Part shown: piece after piece, positions 4,742-56,162 of the stretch | Numbering within the stretch: the first letter of the stretch is position 1 | Layout of the letters: each line of letters starts with the position of its first letter | Source of the DNA: Oscillospiraceae bacterium | GTDB taxonomy: Bacteria > Bacillota > Clostridia > Oscillospirales > Oscillospiraceae | Assembly: GCA_017439805.1 (NCBI GenBank) | Contig: JAFSIK010000003.1 | Span: forward strand, 8,258-72,257 | Direction: 5' to 3' | DNA: 64,000 bases | Translations under genes and position numbers: made by a program | Notes under the pieces: model-generated | What the model was told of the DNA's origin: nothing | The model's input: the letters and a program-made list of their open reading frames with translations, nothing else | The model's database searches: none

Positions 4742-5379
4742 GTGAACTTATACTCAGCCCCAAACTGGATATAAAGACCCGCACCACCCGCTGGTACAGG
4801 CTGATTTATATTCTGGTCTGGATATTTACAAGAGCTAAAAATTTCCCCGTTTATCACGGCAGGGAGAATATCCCTGCCGCTGATGGTATGCTCATTTGTG
4901 CAAACCACACGGTATTCCTTGACCCCATGCTTCTTATGGTGGCTCTCACACGCCGCCGCCAGGCTCACTTCATGGCCAAGGCGGAGTGGTTTGAAAACAA
5001 GCTTTTCAAATTCGTTCTCAACAAAATGGGAATGTTCCCCGTAAAAAGGGGAGAGAGCGATATGAAGGCGGTCAAAACCGCCCTTGGGTATCTGAAAAAC
5101 GGCGAAAATGTTGCCATTTTCCCCCAGGGCACCCGCAGCGACGACGATGAACGCATTGAGGGTAAAACCGGCGCGGCAATGTTTGCCCTGCGCACCGGAG
5201 TTCCGGTACTGCCGGTGTTTATCCAAAGCCCGAGAGGACGCTTTTTAAAGCGTGTCCATGTTGTTATCGGCGAGCCCTTTGTACCCGAATGCGACGGCAA
5301 ACCCACCCATGACGACTACCGCCGTGTGGCCGACGAGATAATGGAACACATCTGGGAGCTGGAGGAAAAGGTAAAATGA
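4738..5379 (+). CDS. plsC: 1-acyl-sn-glycerol-3-phosphate acyltransferase
   Basis: HxxxxD acyltransferase motif (NHTVFLD) and FPQGTRS block. The GTG start overlaps the cmk stop (GTGA). Confidence 0.85.
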   Translation: MSELILSPKLDIKTRTTRWYRLIYILVWIFTRAKNFPVYHGRENIPAADGMLICANHTVFLDPMLLMVALTRRRQAHFMAKAEWFENKLFKFVLNKMGMFPVKRGESDMKAVKTALGYLKNGENVAIFPQGTRSDDDERIEGKTGAAMFALRTGVPVLPVFIQSPRGRFLKRVHVVIGEPFVPECDGKPTHDDYRRVADEIMEHIWELEEKVK

Positions 5380-7433
5380 AGATAACCCTTGCACAGACTG
5401 CCGGCTTTTGCCGCGGCGTGGACAAGGCTGTGAATATGGCTCTTGACGCCGGAAAAAGCGGTAAAAAATATGTAACTCTGGGTCCCATAATTCACAATGC
5501 CGACGCGGTGGCAATGCTTGAAAAAAACGGTGTGCGCGCGGTTGAATCCATCGATGAGGTTCCCGAGGGGTACGGGGTCATAATCCGCTCACACGGAGTG
5601 GGGGACAGCATCTACCGTCAGCTGGAAAGCCGGGGCATTGAATACCTGGACGCAACCTGCCCCTATGTCACCCGGGTGCACAACATTGTAAAAGAGCAGT
5701 CCGCAGCCGGTCGTTTCTGTGTAATAATGGGCAAAAAAGACCACCCGGAGGTGGTGGGGATTGCCGATTGCGGACATGAAGTCAAAGTCGCGGAAAGCGC
5801 CGAAGAGTTTGAACAGTTTGTGAAGTTTGATACGGAAGTGTCAAATAAACCTCTGTGTGTTGTTTTTCAAACTACCAACGCAAAAAAAATACTTGAAAAT
5901 TGCTCCAAAATAGTAAAAAAAGATTGCAAAGATGCACTGATATTTGATACAATATGCAGGTCAACGGAAAAACGACAGGAAGAAGCAGCGGCTCTTGCCA
6001 AGGAAAATCAGACAATGATTGTACTTGGCGACAGGAGCAGCTCAAACACAGGCAAGCTTTATGAAACTTGCCGCGGGATATGTCCGCAGGTAGTGTTTGC
6101 ATCAAACGCTTCCGAGCTGGACATTAATTCATTTGCCGGCACCGATTCCGTTGCTATCACCGCGGGCGCGTCGACGCCCGGGTGGATAATCAAGGAGGTT
6201 TGTGAAAAAATGAGCGAAGAAATTATCAGAGCAGCGGAAGAAACCGCCGAGGAAATTGTCGAGGAGGTCGTGGTTGATAACACTATCGCCGAAGACGATA
6301 GCTTTGAAACCATGCTCAACAAATCCTTCAAAACCCTCACCAGCGGCGAGAAGGTTACCGGCATTGTTACTGCCGTAAATTCCGGCGAGGTTTGCGTAGA
6401 CCTGGGCACCAAGCACGCAGGCTACATTCCTCTCAGCGAAATCAGCGACGATCCCTCTGTCAAGCCCGAGGACCTGTTCAAGGTGGGCGACGAGGTTGAA
6501 TGCTTCACCGTACGTGTAAACGACGCCGAAGGCACCGCTATGCTCTCCAAGAAGCGCCTTGACACCGTCAAGACCTGGGAGACCATCGAAAATGCCGTAG
6601 AGTCCAGAGAAATCATGGAAGGTACCGTTACCGAGGAAAACAAGGGCGGCATCGTGGTTTCCGTCAAGGGCGTGCGCGTATTCGTACCCGCTTCCCACAC
6701 CGGCCTTGCCAAGGGCGAGGATCTTTCCACCATGCTCAAGACCAAGGTTCGCCTGCGCATCACCGAGGTCAACAAGGCTCGCCGCCGCGTTGTCGGCAGC
6801 ATCCGCGACGTCCTGCGCGAAGAGCGCAAGGCCGCTTCCGAGGCCCTGTGGAGCACCATCGAAGCCGGCAACAAGTACACCGGCACCGTTAAGAGCCTGA
6901 CTTCCTACGGCGCATTCGTAGACATCGGCGGCGTTGACGGCATGGTTCACGTTTCCGAACTGAGCTGGAGCAAAATCAAGAACCCCGCTGAGGTTCTGTC
7001 TGTTGGTCAGCAGGTTGATGTTTATGTCATCGCTGTTGATACCGAGAAGAAAAAGATCTCCCTGGGTTACAAGGATCCCAACGGCAACCCCTGGACCATG
7101 TTTACTACCCAGTATAACGTTGGTGATGTTGCCAATGTTAAGATCCTCAAGCTGATGACCTACGGCGCCTTTGCCCAGATCCTGCCCGGCGTTGATGGCC
7201 TTATCCACATTTCCCAGATCGCCGACAAGCGTATCAACAAGACCGAGGACGTTCTGACCGTTGGCCAGGAAGTAGACGCCAAGATCACCGACATCGATTT
7301 CGACAAGCATAAGGTCTCTCTGAGCATCCGTGCTCTGCTGGCTCCCGAGGCTCCCGCCGAGGAAGCTGCCGAGGCTCCCGCTGAAGACGAAGTCGTAGCC
7401 GTATTTGATGGCGAGACCCCCGTTGAGGAGTAA
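5376..7433 (+). CDS. ispH: bifunctional 4-hydroxy-3-methylbut-2-enyl diphosphate reductase (IspH/LytB) / ribosomal protein S1-domain fusion
   Basis: The N-terminal ~280 aa is IspH-like (GFCRGVDKAV, ATCPYVTRVH, DTICRSTEKRQ cysteine ligands). The C-terminal half carries four S1 repeats (e.g. GTVKSLTSYGAFVDIGGVDGMVHVSEL). Confidence 0.9.
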   Translation: MKITLAQTAGFCRGVDKAVNMALDAGKSGKKYVTLGPIIHNADAVAMLEKNGVRAVESIDEVPEGYGVIIRSHGVGDSIYRQLESRGIEYLDATCPYVTRVHNIVKEQSAAGRFCVIMGKKDHPEVVGIADCGHEVKVAESAEEFEQFVKFDTEVSNKPLCVVFQTTNAKKILENCSKIVKKDCKDALIFDTICRSTEKRQEEAAALAKENQTMIVLGDRSSSNTGKLYETCRGICPQVVFASNASELDINSFAGTDSVAITAGASTPGWIIKEVCEKMSEEIIRAAEETAEEIVEEVVVDNTIAEDDSFETMLNKSFKTLTSGEKVTGIVTAVNSGEVCVDLGTKHAGYIPLSEISDDPSVKPEDLFKVGDEVECFTVRVNDAEGTAMLSKKRLDTVKTWETIENAVESREIMEGTVTEENKGGIVVSVKGVRVFVPASHTGLAKGEDLSTMLKTKVRLRITEVNKARRRVVGSIRDVLREERKAASEALWSTIEAGNKYTGTVKSLTSYGAFVDIGGVDGMVHVSELSWSKIKNPAEVLSVGQQVDVYVIAVDTEKKKISLGYKDPNGNPWTMFTTQYNVGDVANVKILKLMTYGAFAQILPGVDGLIHISQIADKRINKTEDVLTVGQEVDAKITDIDFDKHKVSLSIRALLAPEAPAEEAAEAPAEDEVVAVFDGETPVEE

Positions 7434-7484: not shown

Positions 7485-9149
<1,665 letters not shown>

Positions 9150-33558: not shown

Positions 33559-33854
33559 TCGGGCGTTGGACAGCCCGCGCTAACCGGGGAGCCAGCGGTG
33601 CCCTATACCTGCAATCCGCTACAGCAGGGGCTAATTCCTGCCCCCGGGTACCCGGTGTGTTGTCTGACCGGCGTAAGTAGTGATGATGGGTCGGTCCTGC
33701 GCAACGAAGATCCGTGAACCATGTCAGGCGGGGAACCGAGCAGCATTAAGCGGAACCCTTCGTGTGCCGCGGGACAGCCGTCCCTGAGCCGGCTGCGCCG
33801 GTAACGGGCATATCGTGTATTCAAAGGCAGGTGCGCGGGCTGTCCAGCGCCCGA
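33559..33854 (+). ncRNA. ffs: signal recognition particle RNA, long Bacillus-type (with Alu domain)
   Basis: Terminal helix TCGGGCGTTGGACAGCCCGCGC / GCGCGGGCTGTCCAGCGCCCGA. Internal blocks are near-identical to B. subtilis scRNA (GCGGTGCCCTATACCTGCAATCCGCT; GAACCATGTCAGGCGGGGAACCGAGCAGCATTAAG; GTGTGCCGCGGGA). It sits in the classical position upstream of dnaX. End coordinates are approximate. Confidence 0.92.
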
Positions 33855-50401: not shown

Positions 50402-50430
50402 TTGACAACCGCCCGGATTTTTGCCATAAT
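50402..50430 (+). promoter_or_regulatory. sigma-A promoter of T-box leader 1
   Basis: TTGACA, 17-nt spacer, CATAAT. Confidence 0.6.
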
Positions 50431-50436
50431 CTTTTC

Positions 50437-50700
50437 AAATGCGACGACCGGGGAAAAGTAATCCCAGACCATCCTCTCCAGAGAGCCGCCGGCAGGTGAA
50501 AGGCGGCAGAGGAACCGGGGACGAATACACTCCGAGAGCAGCGCGCCCAACGGCAATTTTGCCCAGTAGACCGCGTCGGGTGGCTCCCGTTACAGGGCAA
50601 GGGTGATTTACCCGCTGAGGCCGGCGGCCGTGAGGCGTCGGTGAACTGAGGTGGTACCACGGAATTTTCCGTCCTCTGCTTTTACGGCAGAGGATTTTTT
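50437..50700 (+). promoter_or_regulatory. T-box riboswitch leader, specifier read as UAC (Tyr)
   Basis: Stem I elements (GCGACGA ... AGAGCAGC, CCAGAGAG, GGUGAAAG). Specifier loop CGAA-UAC-A (UAC at 50526..50528) closes on CUCCG. Conserved T-box AACUGAGGUGGUACCACGG (50644..50662). Terminator TCCTCTGCT-loop-GGCAGAGGA followed by TTTTTT (50672..50700). Confidence 0.8.
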
Positions 50701-50720
50701 ATTGCAAAAGGAGACAAAGA

Positions 50721-52373
50721 ATGACTATTGTTGATTTTCTGGAGAAAAACGCCAGACTCTACGGCGCCGAGACCGCTCTGGTAGAACTCAACCCTTCCGA
50801 GGAGCACGACAACGCCATGACCCAGGCGCTGACCTGGCGTGATTTCAGCCTTATTCAGGGCAGCGACCCGGATGCGCCCTACCGCCGTGAAATGAGCTGG
50901 CAGGAATTTGATCGCCGTGCCAACAGATTTGCAAATCTGCTGCTCAGCCGCGGCCTTGAGCGCGGAACAAAGGTTGCCATTCTGCTTATGAACTGCCTTG
51001 AGTGGTTGCCCATATATTTCGGTATTCTGAAGGCCGGCTGTATTGCCGTTCCTATGAATTTCCGCTACTCCAGCGATGAAATCAAATACTGTCTTGAACT
51101 GGCAGATGTTGAGGTACTGGTGTTCGGACCCGAGTTTGTCGGCCGTATGGACGCTATTGCCGATAACATTCCCGGTGTGAGAATGATGTTCTTTGTGGGC
51201 AGGGACAAGCCCGCATATACCGAGGATTGCGGAAAGCTGATGGGCTTCTGCTCCACAGGCGCGCCTCCCGTAGCTCTTGAGGAGGAAGATGACGCCGCCA
51301 TATATTTTTCCTCCGGCACTACCGGCTTCCCCAAGGCTATCCTCCACAACCATCTCTCCCTTGTAAGTTCCTGTCAGACTGAACGCGCTCACCACGGTCA
51401 GACCCGCCAGGACGTATTCCTGTGCATACCGCCCCTGTACCACACCGGCGCAAAAATGCACTGGTTCGGCAGTCTGCTTGCCGGCAGCAAGGCAGTATTG
51501 CTACGCGGTGTAAAGCCCGAGTGGATACTGCGCGCCGTCACCGAGGAAAAATGCACCATCGTATGGCTTCTGGTGCCCTGGACTCAGGATATCCTTGACG
51601 CTATCGACAGCGGCAGCATAAATCTGGACGACTATGTGCTTGACCAGTGGCGTCTGATGCATATCGGCGCCCAGCCCGTTCCTCCCAGCCTTATAAAGCG
51701 CTGGAAAAAAGTATTCCCCGGGCATCAGTACGACACCAACTACGGCCTGTCCGAATCCATCGGCCCCGGCTGTGTGCATCTTGGCGTGGAAAATATTCAC
51801 AAGGTGGGCGCAATCGGCAAAGCCGGCTATCTCTGGCAGACCAAGATCATCGACGAAAACGGCGAAACCGTTGCCCCGGGCGAAGTTGGCGAGCTTTCCG
51901 TCAAGGGGCCCGGTGTCATGACCTGCTATTATAAAAATCCCCAGGCTACAGAGGAAATTCTCAAGGCTGACGGCTGGCTCAATACCGGCGATATGGCCCG
52001 CGAGGATGAGGACGGATTTATTTATCTTGTGGACCGTAAAAAGGACGTCATTATCTCCGGCGGTGAGAATATTTACCCCGTGCAGATCGAGGACTTCCTG
52101 CGTGCCAATATAAAAATCAAGGACGTTGCCGTTATCGGTCTTCCCGACGACAGACTGGGCGAAATTTCTGCCGCAATTATCGAACTGAAAGAGGACGTTA
52201 CCGCCGACGAGGACGAGATCAACACCTTCTGCCTTGAACTGCCCAGATACAAGCGTCCCCGCAAAATTATCTTTGCCAAGGTGCCCCGCAACCCCACCGG
52301 CAAGATCGAAAAACCCCGCCTGCGCGAGATATACTGCGGCGGCCGACTGGTAGAGGTTCAGACCACCAAGTGA
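50721..52373 (+). CDS. ANL-superfamily adenylate-forming enzyme (acyl/aryl-CoA ligase-like)
   Basis: 550 aa. AMP-binding motifs YFSSGTTGFPKA, YGLSE, TGDMAREDEDGFIYLVDRKKDVIISGGENIYP, PRNPTGKIEK. RBS AAGGAG. Confidence 0.85.
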   Translation: MTIVDFLEKNARLYGAETALVELNPSEEHDNAMTQALTWRDFSLIQGSDPDAPYRREMSWQEFDRRANRFANLLLSRGLERGTKVAILLMNCLEWLPIYFGILKAGCIAVPMNFRYSSDEIKYCLELADVEVLVFGPEFVGRMDAIADNIPGVRMMFFVGRDKPAYTEDCGKLMGFCSTGAPPVALEEEDDAAIYFSSGTTGFPKAILHNHLSLVSSCQTERAHHGQTRQDVFLCIPPLYHTGAKMHWFGSLLAGSKAVLLRGVKPEWILRAVTEEKCTIVWLLVPWTQDILDAIDSGSINLDDYVLDQWRLMHIGAQPVPPSLIKRWKKVFPGHQYDTNYGLSESIGPGCVHLGVENIHKVGAIGKAGYLWQTKIIDENGETVAPGEVGELSVKGPGVMTCYYKNPQATEEILKADGWLNTGDMAREDEDGFIYLVDRKKDVIISGGENIYPVQIEDFLRANIKIKDVAVIGLPDDRLGEISAAIIELKEDVTADEDEINTFCLELPRYKRPRKIIFAKVPRNPTGKIEKPRLREIYCGGRLVEVQTTK

Positions 52374-52377
52374 GAAC

Positions 52378-52406
52378 TTGACAAAAATTTAAGCCTGTGG
52401 CATAAT
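52378..52406 (+). promoter_or_regulatory. sigma-A promoter of T-box leader 2
   Basis: TTGACA, 17-nt spacer, CATAAT, starting 5 nt after the ligase stop codon. Confidence 0.6.
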
Positions 52407-52412
52407 ACTTAA

Positions 52413-52675
52413 AAATTAAATCAAAGGCTGTGACGAAGAGGGTCGGGCAATAATGCTCACAGAGAGCCGGCGTATGGTGCGAGCCGGCAGCGGAGTTTCC
52501 CAGTACCTATGGCTTCTGAGCCGGGGGTTCGATATGTAGGGCCTCACGTTTGGCGCCGCGTAAGAGCGCAGGGTTTGAAAGAACCCCTGAGTGGCATCGA
52601 AAGATGCAATTTGAGTGGTACCGCGGGTATTCATCCCGTCTCAAAGATAATTTGAGGCGGGATTTTCATTTTTAC
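52413..52675 (+). promoter_or_regulatory. T-box riboswitch leader, specifier probably AUG (Met)
   Basis: CACAGAGAGCCGG...AUGGUGCGAGCCGG distal Stem I. AUG (52509..52511) followed by G-CUUC closing the helix. T-box AAUUUGAGUGGUACCGCGGG (52608..52627). Terminator ATCCCGTCTCAAA...TTTGAGGCGGGAT followed by a T-run. Confidence 0.75.
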
Positions 52676-52691
52676 CGAAAGGATGAGCCAT

Positions 52692-53978
52692 ATGAAAGAC
52701 TATTCCATCAATACTAAGTGCGTTCAGGCGGGATACACCCCCGGAAACGGCGAGCCCCGTCAGATTCCCATCGTACAGAGCACCACTTTCAAATACAATA
52801 CCAGCGAGGATATGGGAAAGCTTTTTGACCTTGAGGCCAGCGGCTATTTCTATACCCGTCTGCAGAACCCCACCAACGATTATGTGGCCGCAAAGATATG
52901 CGCCCTTGAGGGCGGGACCGCCGCTATGCTGACATCCTCCGGTCAGGCGGCAAACTTCTTTGCTATTTTCAATATTGCCGGCTGCGGCGATCACGTTGTG
53001 GCTTCCTCCACCATCTACGGCGGCACCTACAATCTTTTCGCCGTCACCATGAAGAAGATGGGCATTGAGTTTACCTTCGTTTCACCCGACTGCACCGATG
53101 AGGAGCTTGAGGCGGCTTTCCGCCCCAACACCAAGGCCGTGTTCGGCGAAACTATTGCCAATCCTGCCCTCACCGTTCTGGATATAGAGCGTTTTGCCAA
53201 CGCCGCCCACGCCCACGGCGTTCCCCTCATTGTTGACAACACCTTTGCAACCCCAGTAAACTGCCGTCCCATCGAATGGGGCTGCGACATCGTAACCCAC
53301 TCCACCACCAAGTATATCGACGGCCACGGCGCCAGCGTTGGCGGCTGCATCGTTGACAGCGGCAAATTTGACTGGCTGGCACACGCTGAAAAATTCCCCG
53401 GTCTCACCACTCCCGACGATAGCTATCACGGCATTACCTACGCTGAAAAGTTCGGTCTTGCCGGAGCTTATATAACCAAGGCCACCGCCCAGCTCATGCG
53501 TGACTTCGGCAGCATCCAGTCCCCCCAGAACGCTTTCTATCTGAATCTGGGTCTGGAAAGCCTCCACGTGCGTATGCCCCGCCACTGTGAAAATGGCCTT
53601 GCGGTTGCAAAATATCTGAAAAACCATCCCAAAATCAGCTTTGTCACCTATCCCGGTCTGGAGGGCGACAAGTATTACGAGCTGGCCCGGAAATATATGC
53701 CCAACGGCACCTGCGGTGTAGTATCCTTCGGTTTTAAGGGCGGACGCGCCGCTGCAGAGACCTTTATGAAAAATCTCAAGATTGCCGCCATCGAGACCCA
53801 TGTTGCCGATGCCCGCTCCTGCTGCCTGCATCCTGCCAACGCCACCCACCGCCAGATGAATGACGCCGAGCTTATTGCCTGCGGTATCACCGCCGACCTT
53901 GTGCGCTTCTCCTGCGGCATTGAGGACGCCGCCGACCTTATCGCTGATATTGAGCAGGCTCTTGAAGCCGTGAAATAA
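52692..53978 (+). CDS. metY: O-acetylhomoserine aminocarboxypropyltransferase (sulfhydrylase)
   Basis: PLP-dependent Cys/Met-metabolism family (STTKYIDGHG lysine, QSTTF, GGTYNLF). ATG 52692 is preferred over 52683 on RBS spacing. Confidence 0.88.
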   Translation: MKDYSINTKCVQAGYTPGNGEPRQIPIVQSTTFKYNTSEDMGKLFDLEASGYFYTRLQNPTNDYVAAKICALEGGTAAMLTSSGQAANFFAIFNIAGCGDHVVASSTIYGGTYNLFAVTMKKMGIEFTFVSPDCTDEELEAAFRPNTKAVFGETIANPALTVLDIERFANAAHAHGVPLIVDNTFATPVNCRPIEWGCDIVTHSTTKYIDGHGASVGGCIVDSGKFDWLAHAEKFPGLTTPDDSYHGITYAEKFGLAGAYITKATAQLMRDFGSIQSPQNAFYLNLGLESLHVRMPRHCENGLAVAKYLKNHPKISFVTYPGLEGDKYYELARKYMPNGTCGVVSFGFKGGRAAAETFMKNLKIAAIETHVADARSCCLHPANATHRQMNDAELIACGITADLVRFSCGIEDAADLIADIEQALEAVK

Positions 53979-54008
53979 CCGGCGACCAATTTCAAGGAGT
54001 GAAACAAA

Positions 54009-54941
54009 ATGCCCATTAAGATACCAAATCTTCTCCCGGCCACCAAGGTGCTGGAGCAGGAAAATATCTTTGTCATGACGGAAACCCGGGCCCGCACCCA
54101 GGATATTCGCCCTCTGCAGATACTTATCCTAAACCTTATGCCCCAGAAAATTGTAACCGAGACTCAGCTGTCCCGCCTTCTGGGCAACACCCCCCTGCAG
54201 GTGGAGGTCGAGCTTATAAACACCCGCAGCCACCTGGCGAAAAACACCTCCGCCGAGCATATGCTGGCCTTTTACAAGCACTTTGACGACGTCAAACACC
54301 GCAAGTTCGACGGTATGATAATCACCGGAGCTCCCGTTGAAAAGATGGAGTTTGAAGAGGTGGAATACTGGGACGAGCTGTGTGAGATAATGGAGTGGAC
54401 AAAGACCAATGTTCACAGCACTTTCCACATCTGCTGGGGCGCTCAGGCGGGTCTTTACTACCACTTCGGTGTGCCAAAAAAGGCGTTGAGCCAGAAAATG
54501 TTTGGTGTATTCCCTCATGTGGTTGAGTACCGTCAGTCCATTCTCTTCCGCGGTTTTGACGACAATTTCATGGTGCCTCATTCCCGTCACACCACTTTCG
54601 ACAGGGAAGATGTTGAAAAGCATCCGGAACTGAAAATCCTTGCCTCCTCTGCAGAGGCGGGAGTTTACGCCATATCCACCAAAAACGGCAGACAGATATT
54701 CATCACCGGCCACTCCGAATATGATGCCGATACTCTGAAAAACGAGTATGTCCGCGATGTAAACGAGGGTCTGGAGATCCAGATACCCAAAAATTACTTC
54801 CCCGATGATGACCCTGCAAAAAGCCCACTGGTCAGCTGGAGAGCCCACGCAAACCTGCTCTATACAAACTGGCTCAACTATTTCGTTTATCAGACAACCC
54901 CATACGACATATCCACCATCACTCCTCATGAAAAAGAATAA
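54009..54941 (+). CDS. metA: homoserine O-acetyltransferase (MetA-type)
   Basis: [11 protein letters not shown]...ILNLMP, catalytic FHICWGAQ. The GAPVE motif has Glu at the position reported to specify acetyl-CoA rather than succinyl-CoA. Confidence 0.88.
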
Positions 54942-55037: not shown

Positions 55038-56162
55038 ATGGCTGATAAAAAAATGGGCTTCGGACTTATGCGCCTGCCAGTTCTGGATGAAAACGACCAG
55101 AGCACCATTGATATCGAGCAGACCTGTAAAATGGTGGACAGCTTTATCGAAAAGGGTTTTACTTATTTCGATACCGCCCTTATGTATATGGGTGACAGCT
55201 GTGAGAGCGCGGTAAAGACCGTTTTAACCTCCCGTTATCCCAGAGATAAATATACCCTTGCCACCAAAATGCACGCGGCATACGTAAAAACCGCTGAGGA
55301 CCTGGACAGAGTTTTTGCTGAACAGCTCAGCCGCACCGGTGTGGAGTATTTTGATTATTACCTTATCCACTACGTAGGCCGCACAACCTATAAAAAATAC
55401 AACCGCCTTGACACCTTCAACTGGCTTAAAGAGAAAAAGGCCCAGGGACTTGTAAAAAAGATTGGTTTTTCCTACCACGACAGCGCGGAATTTCTTGAAA
55501 CCGTCCTCAGCGAAAATCCCGGTATGGATTTTGTCCAGCTCCAGATAAACTATCTGGACTGGGACAGCGAGGGAGTGCAGTCCCGCCTGTGCTATCAGGT
55601 AGCCGTTGACCACAACCTGCCCGTGGTGGTAATGGAGCCTGTAAAGGGCGGGACTCTTTCCAAACTTTCCCCTCAGGCCGAGACCGTGCTTAAAGAAAGA
55701 CACCCCGACCTTTCCATCACCAGTTGGGCGATGCGTTTTTGCGCCAGCCTTGAAAACGTGTTTATGGTTCTCAGCGGCTCCAGCAACATAGAGCAGATGG
55801 AGGACAACCTTTCCTATATGTCCGATTTCAAGCCCTTTGATGCGGACGAATTTGACCGGGTGAAAAAGGTTGCGGAAATCATAAATTCCGATGTTCACAT
55901 TCCCTGCACCGGCTGCGGATACTGCCTTGGCCCCTGTCCTCAGGAAATCCCCATTCCCAAGTATTTCTCCCTGTACAACGCCGACAGAAAAGAAGTTTCC
56001 GGCAACGACTGGACACCACAGATGGGTTATTACGACAACACCGTCAAGGTCAGAACCCCGGCGGGACAGTGCATAAAGTGCGGCAAGTGCGAGGAAGCCT
56101 GCCCCCAGCACCTGCCGGTCATAAAGCATCTTGAAGAAGTGGCGGAGTATTTCGGAAGATGA
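55038..56162 (+). CDS. aldo/keto reductase fused to a C-terminal 4Fe-4S ferredoxin-type domain
   Basis: AKR N-terminus (GFGLMRLP, FDTALMY). C-terminal CTGCGYCLGPCP and CIKCGKCEEACP cluster motifs. Confidence 0.85.
   Translation: MADKKMGFGLMRLPVLDENDQSTIDIEQTCKMVDSFIEKGFTYFDTALMYMGDSCESAVKTVLTSRYPRDKYTLATKMHAAYVKTAEDLDRVFAEQLSRTGVEYFDYYLIHYVGRTTYKKYNRLDTFNWLKEKKAQGLVKKIGFSYHDSAEFLETVLSENPGMDFVQLQINYLDWDSEGVQSRLCYQVAVDHNLPVVVMEPVKGGTLSKLSPQAETVLKERHPDLSITSWAMRFCASLENVFMVLSGSSNIEQMEDNLSYMSDFKPFDADEFDRVKKVAEIINSDVHIPCTGCGYCLGPCPQEIPIPKYFSLYNADRKEVSGNDWTPQMGYYDNTVKVRTPAGQCIKCGKCEEACPQHLPVIKHLEEVAEYFGR

Follow-up and report, generated by a model that had tools for sequence, protein, structure and literature searches.

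A T-box leader with a tyrosine specifier precedes a predicted arylacetate-CoA ligase in an Oscillospiraceae genome

Introduction

Why would a bacterium place the gene for a coenzyme A (CoA) ligase behind an RNA element that reads the charging of tRNA-Tyr? The question is raised by a locus in a stretch of 64,000 nucleotides (nt) from an Oscillospiraceae bacterium (positions 8,258 to 72,257 of contig JAFSIK010000003.1, GenBank assembly GCA_017439805.1), to which we refer as the window. At 50402-52373 of this window, a T-box leader is followed by a gene for an adenylating enzyme of the ANL superfamily. T-boxes such as those for Tyr canonically control tRNA synthetases, shikimate or tyrosine biosynthesis genes, or amino-acid permeases, and an ANL CoA ligase is none of these. 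A sequence-only reading of the locus had suggested that the enzyme activates an aryl acid that is then reductively carboxylated. We conclude that the ligase probably activates 4-hydroxyphenylacetate, or a close aryl acid, for a tyrosine salvage that depends on indolepyruvate/arylpyruvate:ferredoxin oxidoreductase (IOR, or IorAB).

In Methanococcus maripaludis, it is established genetically that aryl acids are converted to aromatic amino acids through IOR (PMC3462420), and rumen anaerobes have been reported to make phenylalanine from phenylacetate (Allison 1965, as cited in PMC7356843). The same route has been suggested for Bacteroides that carry iorAB and an AMP-forming arylacetate-CoA ligase, and it has been argued, for the IOR cluster of Bacteroides, that AMP-forming ligases favor thioester synthesis (PMC13285125). 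In which direction IOR works physiologically in gut bacteria is a matter of continuing debate (PMC13285125). No IOR, phenylacetate or CoA ligase appears among the T-box targets of Wels 2008 (PMC2494555). Our full-text literature searches gave no link between T-boxes and IOR or arylacetate activation, and absence from such searches is no proof that the link is unpublished.

Results

The T-box leader

A cmscan search against Rfam placed the T-box model RF00230 at 50435-50679 of the forward strand with 108.9 bits (gathering threshold 93; E = 3.8e-23), and the match covers the entire model (positions 1-219 of 219). A search by nhmmer with a hidden Markov model (HMM) of the leader family extended the match to 50435-50703 (+), which comprises Stem I, the Stem II region, Stem III and the antiterminator/terminator of a complete T-box leader. 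The sequence-only reading had listed a promoter, motifs and a terminator as parts of such a leader, and each was found where that reading had put it. The promoter is of the sigma-70 type (50402-50430, +): TTGACA (50402-50407) and CATAAT (50425-50430) are separated by 17 nt, agree with the consensus at 11 of 12 positions and are accompanied by a TG extension.

Stem I (50441-50539, +) displays a GA/K-turn base, the specifier loop, an AGAGA bulge (50480-50484) and a distal loop, and a separate minimum-free-energy (MFE) fold of Stem I alone reproduced its helices in the cmscan structure. Two distal motifs were read from the sequence, CCAGAGAG at 50478-50485 (+) and, in the distal loop, GGUGAAAG at 50495-50502 (+), as was the T-box sequence itself, AACUGAGGUGGUACCACGG, at 50644-50662 (+). 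Together with the antiterminator helix, the T-box sequence occupies 50644-50676 (+), corresponding to RF00230 model positions ~182-216. It includes a UGGU bulge (50652-50655, +), which would match the terminal ACCA of an uncharged tRNA with A73. The intrinsic terminator at 50671-50701 (+) consists of a 10-bp stem (50671-50695) with a 5-nt loop, followed by a U-tract, and its hairpin was formed in another MFE fold (-21.9 kcal/mol, z-score -2.96). Terminator and antiterminator have CCUC/GUCCUC in common: the 5' arm of the terminator, GUCCUCUGC, overlaps with the antiterminator helix on its 3' strand, and the two structures are thus mutually exclusive. A ribosome-binding site, GGAG (50710-50713, +), lies 7 nt 5' of the ligase ATG.

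The Rfam structure was then mapped onto 31 aligned homologues of the leader, taken from related genomes. In this alignment, 87% of the cells were paired, compared to 74% after shuffling and 38-49% when the partners were slid, and compensatory changes were present at 40 of the 48 pairs. Helices 1-5 of Stem I covary, and the UGGU bulge is invariant in all 31 leaders. Three features that characterize RF00230 are found here: a full-length score, the Stem I motifs with a codon 5' of the closing helix, and a T-box sequence with a competing terminator. The UAC-containing Stem I, AGAGA bulge, distal loop and UGGU are also those of Bacillus subtilis tyrS and other Tyr T-boxes of this family, which have a competing terminator and antiterminator as well, and the mechanism of transcription attenuation is presumably the same. 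By sequence and predicted fold, the leader is most likely a T-box riboswitch of the classical kind that attenuates transcription, and tRNA-Tyr is the predicted specific effector.

The specifier codon

The specifier codon UAC (Tyr) is located at 50526-50528 (+), between GAA (50523-50525) on the 5' side and A50529 on the 3' side, after which comes CUCCG (50530-50534). The cmscan alignment placed GAA-UAC-A in the specifier slots, and in the MFE fold of Stem I the loop ends just after UAC-A, where it is closed by a 5-bp helix between CGGGG (50449-50453) and CUCCG. Over the 31 leaders, the closing helix shows covariation (AU/GC/CG), with the first pair formed in every one of them. The codon columns hold UAC in 24 leaders and UUC in the remaining seven. 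The earlier assignment of the specifier to Tyr is upheld by the covariance model, which kept UAC in the codon slot, and by the family alignment.

The base 3' of a T-box specifier is usually a conserved purine. In this family, 15 of the 31 leaders have C at the corresponding position (alignment column 99, window 50529), and all others have A. A synonymous third codon position would behave in this way if the codon had been misread by one base and stood for Thr (ACA/ACC) here, and for Ser (UCC/UCA) in leaders of the UUC group. The loss of the canonical purine from half of the family also speaks for such a shift. The +1 frame, however, was never chosen by cmscan, which always put UAC or UUC in the codon slots, and a shifted codon would touch the closing helix, leaving no spacer. 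It would also need a bulge suited to U73 or G73. All of the leaders carry UGGU, which pairs with A73, while tRNA-Thr(GGU) in a related genome (L006; L numbers denote related genomes and loci) has U73, and G73 is normal in bacterial tRNA-Ser; tRNA-Phe in L060 has A73. Furthermore, UAC and UUC are invariant and belong to the NNC type of codon that T-boxes favor, and the gene context is aromatic. For reasons of cmscan alignment, loop geometry and tRNA discriminator bases, we thus reject the +1 frame and give it very little credence. A tRNA search of the 64 kb found no tRNA gene in the window, so that no local tRNA-Tyr discriminator was available for comparison.

The ligase

Only one open reading frame (ORF), 50721-52373 (+), lies between the terminator and the promoter that follows (52378-52406). 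It encodes an ANL-superfamily adenylating enzyme or acyl-CoA ligase of 550 residues. The ORF list and Pfam (PF00501, 6.9e-71; PF13193, 1.7e-9) confirm the earlier statement that this is the only gene there. The protein combines a PF00501 domain and a small C-terminal domain with intact ANL core motifs, as expected for the superfamily: SSGTTGFPKA (A3 P-loop), TGD (A7), DRKKDVIISGGENIYP (A8 hinge) and PTGKIEK (A10 catalytic Lys). The N-terminal stretch VELNPSEEHDNAMTQALTWRDFSLIQGSDPDAPYRREMSWQEF (50761-50910, residues ~14-63) precedes the Pfam and PDB matches, which begin near residue 55, and may be a family-specific insertion, to judge from the position of those matches.

The top NCBIfam match, the long-chain-fatty-acid-CoA ligase subfamily PRK06187 (NF004837), scored 393.2 bits, under its cut-off of 476 bits, and no NCBIfam ligase model reached its cut-off for this protein; the other models were far below theirs. 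The closest solved relatives are FadD13 (3r44, 2.7e-68), FadD5 and feruloyl-CoA synthetase, with E-values from 1e-57 to 1e-68. FadD13 and PRK06187 are the best sequence matches and share the two-domain ANL fold and the motifs of the ligase, but the ligase is below the cut-off, and its context and regulation (see below) point to aromatic acids rather than lipids. It does not have the architecture of the phenylacetate-CoA ligase PaaK (TIGR02155): the C-terminal domain is PF13193 rather than PF14535, and the length is 550 residues as opposed to ~430. PaaK is likewise an AMP-forming arylacetate ligase and shares operons with the orthologues of the window ligase, but it belongs to another clade of the superfamily. 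Judged by sequence, the window ligase belongs to a clade of ANL acyl-CoA ligases that is distinct, widespread and as yet uncharacterised.

Orthologues and their T-boxes

The ligase family is large and its members are closely conserved; it was found in at least about 600 species-level genomes. From these ~600 relatives, obtained in a scan of one genome per species, we took the best 80 (69-81% identity), which come from Oscillospiraceae, Acutalibacteraceae, Lachnospiraceae, Ruminococcus and others. Metagenomic homologues number in the thousands; among the matches listed, 119 besides the window protein are at 80-83% identity. The T-boxes at the 80 loci were detected by nhmmer with the HMM built from the leaders.

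A homologous T-box was present at 28 of the 80 loci, directly 5' of the ligase in 25 and 5' of a symporter-ligase pair in three. The specifiers were Tyr (UAC) in 23 and Phe (UUC) in five; there were no others. Had orthologues never carried a T-box, the case made in the sequence-only reading would have fallen, and the reverse was found. With the same HMM, no T-box was detected in the other ~50 loci, and an Rfam scan of 13 of these gave no additional one, which argues that the negatives are real. The common gut relative L081 has a plain promoter and no T-box before the ligase. Outside the 80, the locus L084 (82% identity) carries a Tyr T-box, and its flanking genes are unrelated to those of the window, indicating that leader and gene travel together as a unit.

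Near-identical ligase genes also occur in metagenome-assembled genomes labelled Spirochaetia, Victivallales and planctomycete (L029, L032, L035, L064), with a Tyr T-box also present in L032 and L035. This reflects either horizontal transfer of the leader-gene unit or mis-binning of Clostridia contigs.

Gene neighborhood in relatives

In the orthologous loci, the ligase recurs in an operon with the order T-box, ligase, symporter, IorA, IorB, PaaK-like ligase, ACT-pair protein and class I/II aminotransferase. ORF clustering, family searches, independent gene calls and tblastn counts all agree on this arrangement. By tblastn, the 80 loci contain IorA in 43 cases, IorB in 41, the SSS symporter in 31, the PaaK-like ligase in 29, the ACT-pair protein in 25 and the aminotransferase in 10. 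(A large ORF cluster, "c2", proved artefactual, since GC-rich DNA gives rise to long antisense ORFs, and the tblastn counts were used instead.) When only the 52 loci whose downstream sequence extends over 4 kb or more are considered, iorA is on the same strand as the ligase in 37, and iorA or the symporter is present in 40. IorA (716 bits on TIGR03336) and IorB (275 bits on NF005325) both score above the respective cut-offs, and the PaaK-like protein, in L031, contains PF14535 and matches TIGR02155 with 556 bits. The remaining neighbors match PF00474 (sodium:solute symporter), PF19571 (ACT protein) and PF00155 (aminotransferase). A PaaI-like hotdog thioesterase is encoded 5' of the ligase in eight loci.

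In three loci (L002, L037, L081), iorAB has a T-box of its own, and its specifier is Phe in all three. In L002 and L037, the ligase is under a separate Tyr T-box, and in L081 there is none at the ligase. Where a T-box appears to serve the ligase alone or the ligase and symporter, it is always Tyr (window, L084, L032, L035, L047, L017, L058, L063). The ligase does not adjoin IOR and stands alone in the window, L032, L035 and L047. If an IOR-linked aryl-acid salvage operon is defined by co-orientation with iorA-iorB and by an aromatic T-box, then the window has the T-box and lacks the co-orientation. When the window was searched by tblastn for IorA, IorB, the PaaK-like ligase, symporter, ACT protein, aminotransferase and PaaI-like protein, the only match was an aldo/keto reductase with an Fe-S domain.

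Two further observations concern the surroundings of the ligase. In a few loci (L048, at 5184-5999; L003, L022 and L071), a PF04909 amidohydrolase-2 protein is encoded beside the ligase, and in L048 it lies between symporter and ligase under the Tyr T-box; reversible decarboxylases of aromatic acids are among the members of PF04909. L001, the closest relative at the species level, has an azaaromatic (yjdF) riboswitch aptamer (713-813; RF01764, 85.3 bits) ~5 kb 5' of the ligase; the aptamer is probably unrelated to it.

Other features of the window

A second T-box unit (52378-54941) lies directly downstream of the ligase. Its promoter (TTGACA-17-CATAAT, 52378-52406) is near-identical to that of the ligase. 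The RF00230 match of the unit covers 52421-52646 (95.2 bits), and its terminator is located at 52633-52663. In the specifier slots of this leader, cmscan placed AUG-G, that is, Met, which fits the genes under its control: metY (O-acetylhomoserine sulfhydrylase, 52683-53978) and metA (homoserine O-acetyltransferase, 54009-54941). The sequence-only reading had noted the promoter at 52378, which is indeed there, but had not mentioned the Met T-box right after it; the two leaders are separate units. No terminator was found between the ligase stop codon and the second unit.

On the 3' side of metA, 55038-56162 encodes a protein of 374 residues in which an aldo/keto reductase is joined to a 4Fe-4S dicluster domain. 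Homologues with 31-35% identity occur within ~6 kb of the ligase in L016, L053, L056 and L061, and that in L053 is directly 3' of iorB. The recurrence could be due to chance or to a functional link. A bacterial large signal recognition particle RNA is located at 33575-33838 (RF01854, 207.7 bits).

Discussion

We most likely have before us, in the window, a predicted 4-hydroxyphenylacetate-CoA ligase, or arylacetate ligase more broadly, whose production would follow the charging of tRNA-Tyr. When tyrosine is scarce, uncharged tRNA-Tyr would dock on Stem I, its anticodon GUA pairing with UAC, and its free ACCA end would pair with the UGGU bulge and stabilize the antiterminator. RNA polymerase could then pass the terminator at 50671-50701 and transcribe the ligase gene. 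The ligase would make a CoA thioester from an exogenous aryl acid, most probably 4-hydroxyphenylacetate, which IorAB would reductively carboxylate to 4-hydroxyphenylpyruvate, and transamination would yield tyrosine. Such a route would be a salvage of aromatic amino acids that bypasses the shikimate pathway. That the substrate is such an acid, that the pathway runs anabolically and that the genome encodes an IOR outside the window are inferences. In the orthologous loci, the operon genes cover uptake, activation, reductive carboxylation and transamination and thereby point to an aryl-acid route to aromatic amino acids. The direction is suggested by the T-box, which turns genes on when its amino acid is lacking.

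The RNA mechanism in this proposal is a standard one, and the novelty lies in the regulon member and in the pathway assignment. The predicted chemistry is that of the IOR-dependent aryl-acid route known from other systems, and all of its steps (ligase, IorAB, aminotransferase) are encoded in the orthologous loci. The ligase that usually accompanies iorAB, however, is of the PaaK type, with ~435 residues and a PF14535 domain, whereas here it is a FadD-like ANL ligase of ~545 residues, and both types co-occur. The window ligase, moreover, stands alone. As the T-boxes that appear to serve the ligase alone, or the ligase and symporter, read Tyr while the separate T-boxes of iorAB read Phe, the simplest reading of these sequences is a division of labor in which the window-type ligase would act on 4-hydroxyphenylacetate (for Tyr) and the PaaK-like ligase on phenylacetate. 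For the symporter, we propose sodium-driven import of both acids, but it could import tyrosine itself instead.

Several observations weigh against this interpretation. About two thirds of the orthologues have no T-box, and tblastn found no gene for iorA, iorB, a PaaK-like ligase, a symporter or a matching aminotransferase in the 64-kb window. The suggestion of the sequence-only reading that aryl-acid activation feeds reductive carboxylation is therefore borne out by synteny with iorAB, the PaaK-like ligase, symporter, ACT protein and aminotransferase in relatives, but not by an IOR in the window itself; we infer that the partner is encoded elsewhere in the same genome. The operons already hold a PaaK-like arylacetate ligase, and a second ligase next to it requires an assumed difference in substrate. 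The sequence of the enzyme yields no substrate call, its best solved relatives being the fatty-acyl ligases FadD13 and FadD5 and feruloyl-CoA synthetase; ANL folds, too, are so uniform that structure would not settle the matter. Lastly, about half of the leader family departs from known Tyr T-boxes in having C in place of the purine after the codon.

The alternative that survives best, though we consider it unlikely, is that the ligase serves tyrosine supply under its Tyr T-box through another aromatic acid or in another job. The acid might be 3-(4-hydroxyphenyl)propionate, 4-hydroxyphenyllactate, 4-coumarate or 4-hydroxybenzoate; or the enzyme might adenylate tyrosine or a precursor without forming a CoA ester that feeds IOR. 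That feruloyl-CoA synthetase is among the best solved relatives, that all curated families were missed, that the operons have an arylacetate ligase already and that the enzyme is away from IOR in four loci would all agree with this. The dominant neighbor of the ligase, however, is iorAB, whose CoA-ester substrates are arylacetyl-CoAs, and ORF clustering of the orthologous loci found no recurring enzymes for side-chain shortening or hydration and no lactyl-CoA dehydratase.

It is improbable that the cluster is catabolic, with IOR oxidizing arylpyruvates, the ligase handling or recycling the acid products and the T-box link being incidental. IOR and its kin are known to run oxidatively in amino-acid fermenters, and phenylacetate production has been linked with the IOR of Bacteroides (PMC13285125). 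Induction by a T-box upon starvation, however, is the wrong signal for degrading that amino acid, and an uptake-type symporter and an aminotransferase share the operon. Moreover, the catabolic clusters described in PMC13285125 conserve ATP through a phosphotransacylase and kinase or through ADP-forming ligases, not AMP-forming ones.

We give still less weight to an ordinary fatty-acid-CoA ligase whose leader is a relic or a chance neighbor with no link to tyrosine. The top NCBIfam and PDB matches do bear the names of fatty-acyl-CoA ligases, but the score of 393 bits is short of the curated 476, and an intact leader has been inherited along with the gene in 28 species from several families and in differing chromosomal contexts. 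Its specifiers are exclusively Tyr and Phe, and the neighboring genes belong to aromatic, not lipid, metabolism. The one-base shift of the specifier, dealt with above, is the least credible alternative.

Activation of 4-hydroxyphenylacetate or a close aryl acid for tyrosine salvage is consequently the interpretation that we favor. Whether it extends to Clostridia of the gut and rumen (Oscillospiraceae, Acutalibacteraceae, Lachnospiraceae and others) is more evenly balanced: these bacteria may have a hitherto unrecognised salvage pathway gated by tRNA charging, with uptake by the symporter, a FadD-like arm for Tyr and a PaaK-like arm for Phe, a reductive IorAB and an aminotransferase.

The aryl-acid route has been known physiologically in rumen anaerobes since the 1960s, and we found no genes assigned to it in Firmicutes of the gut or rumen. 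Tyr and Phe specifiers before the ligase and iorAB are regulatory evidence that these genes supply, rather than degrade, aromatic amino acids. The specifier of a T-box reports the purpose of the gene behind it, and here it provides a testable function for a ligase family that is present in at least ~600 species-level genomes. If the proposal is true, the specifiers would read out the substrate specificity of each gene directly. As a microbial sink, the pathway would then consume 4-hydroxyphenylacetate and phenylacetate, from which the host-relevant compounds p-cresol and phenylacetylglutamine derive, and abundant commensals would re-assimilate fermentation products that otherwise become these compounds. 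The finding makes both the old physiology and the debate on the direction of IOR in gut bacteria experimentally concrete.

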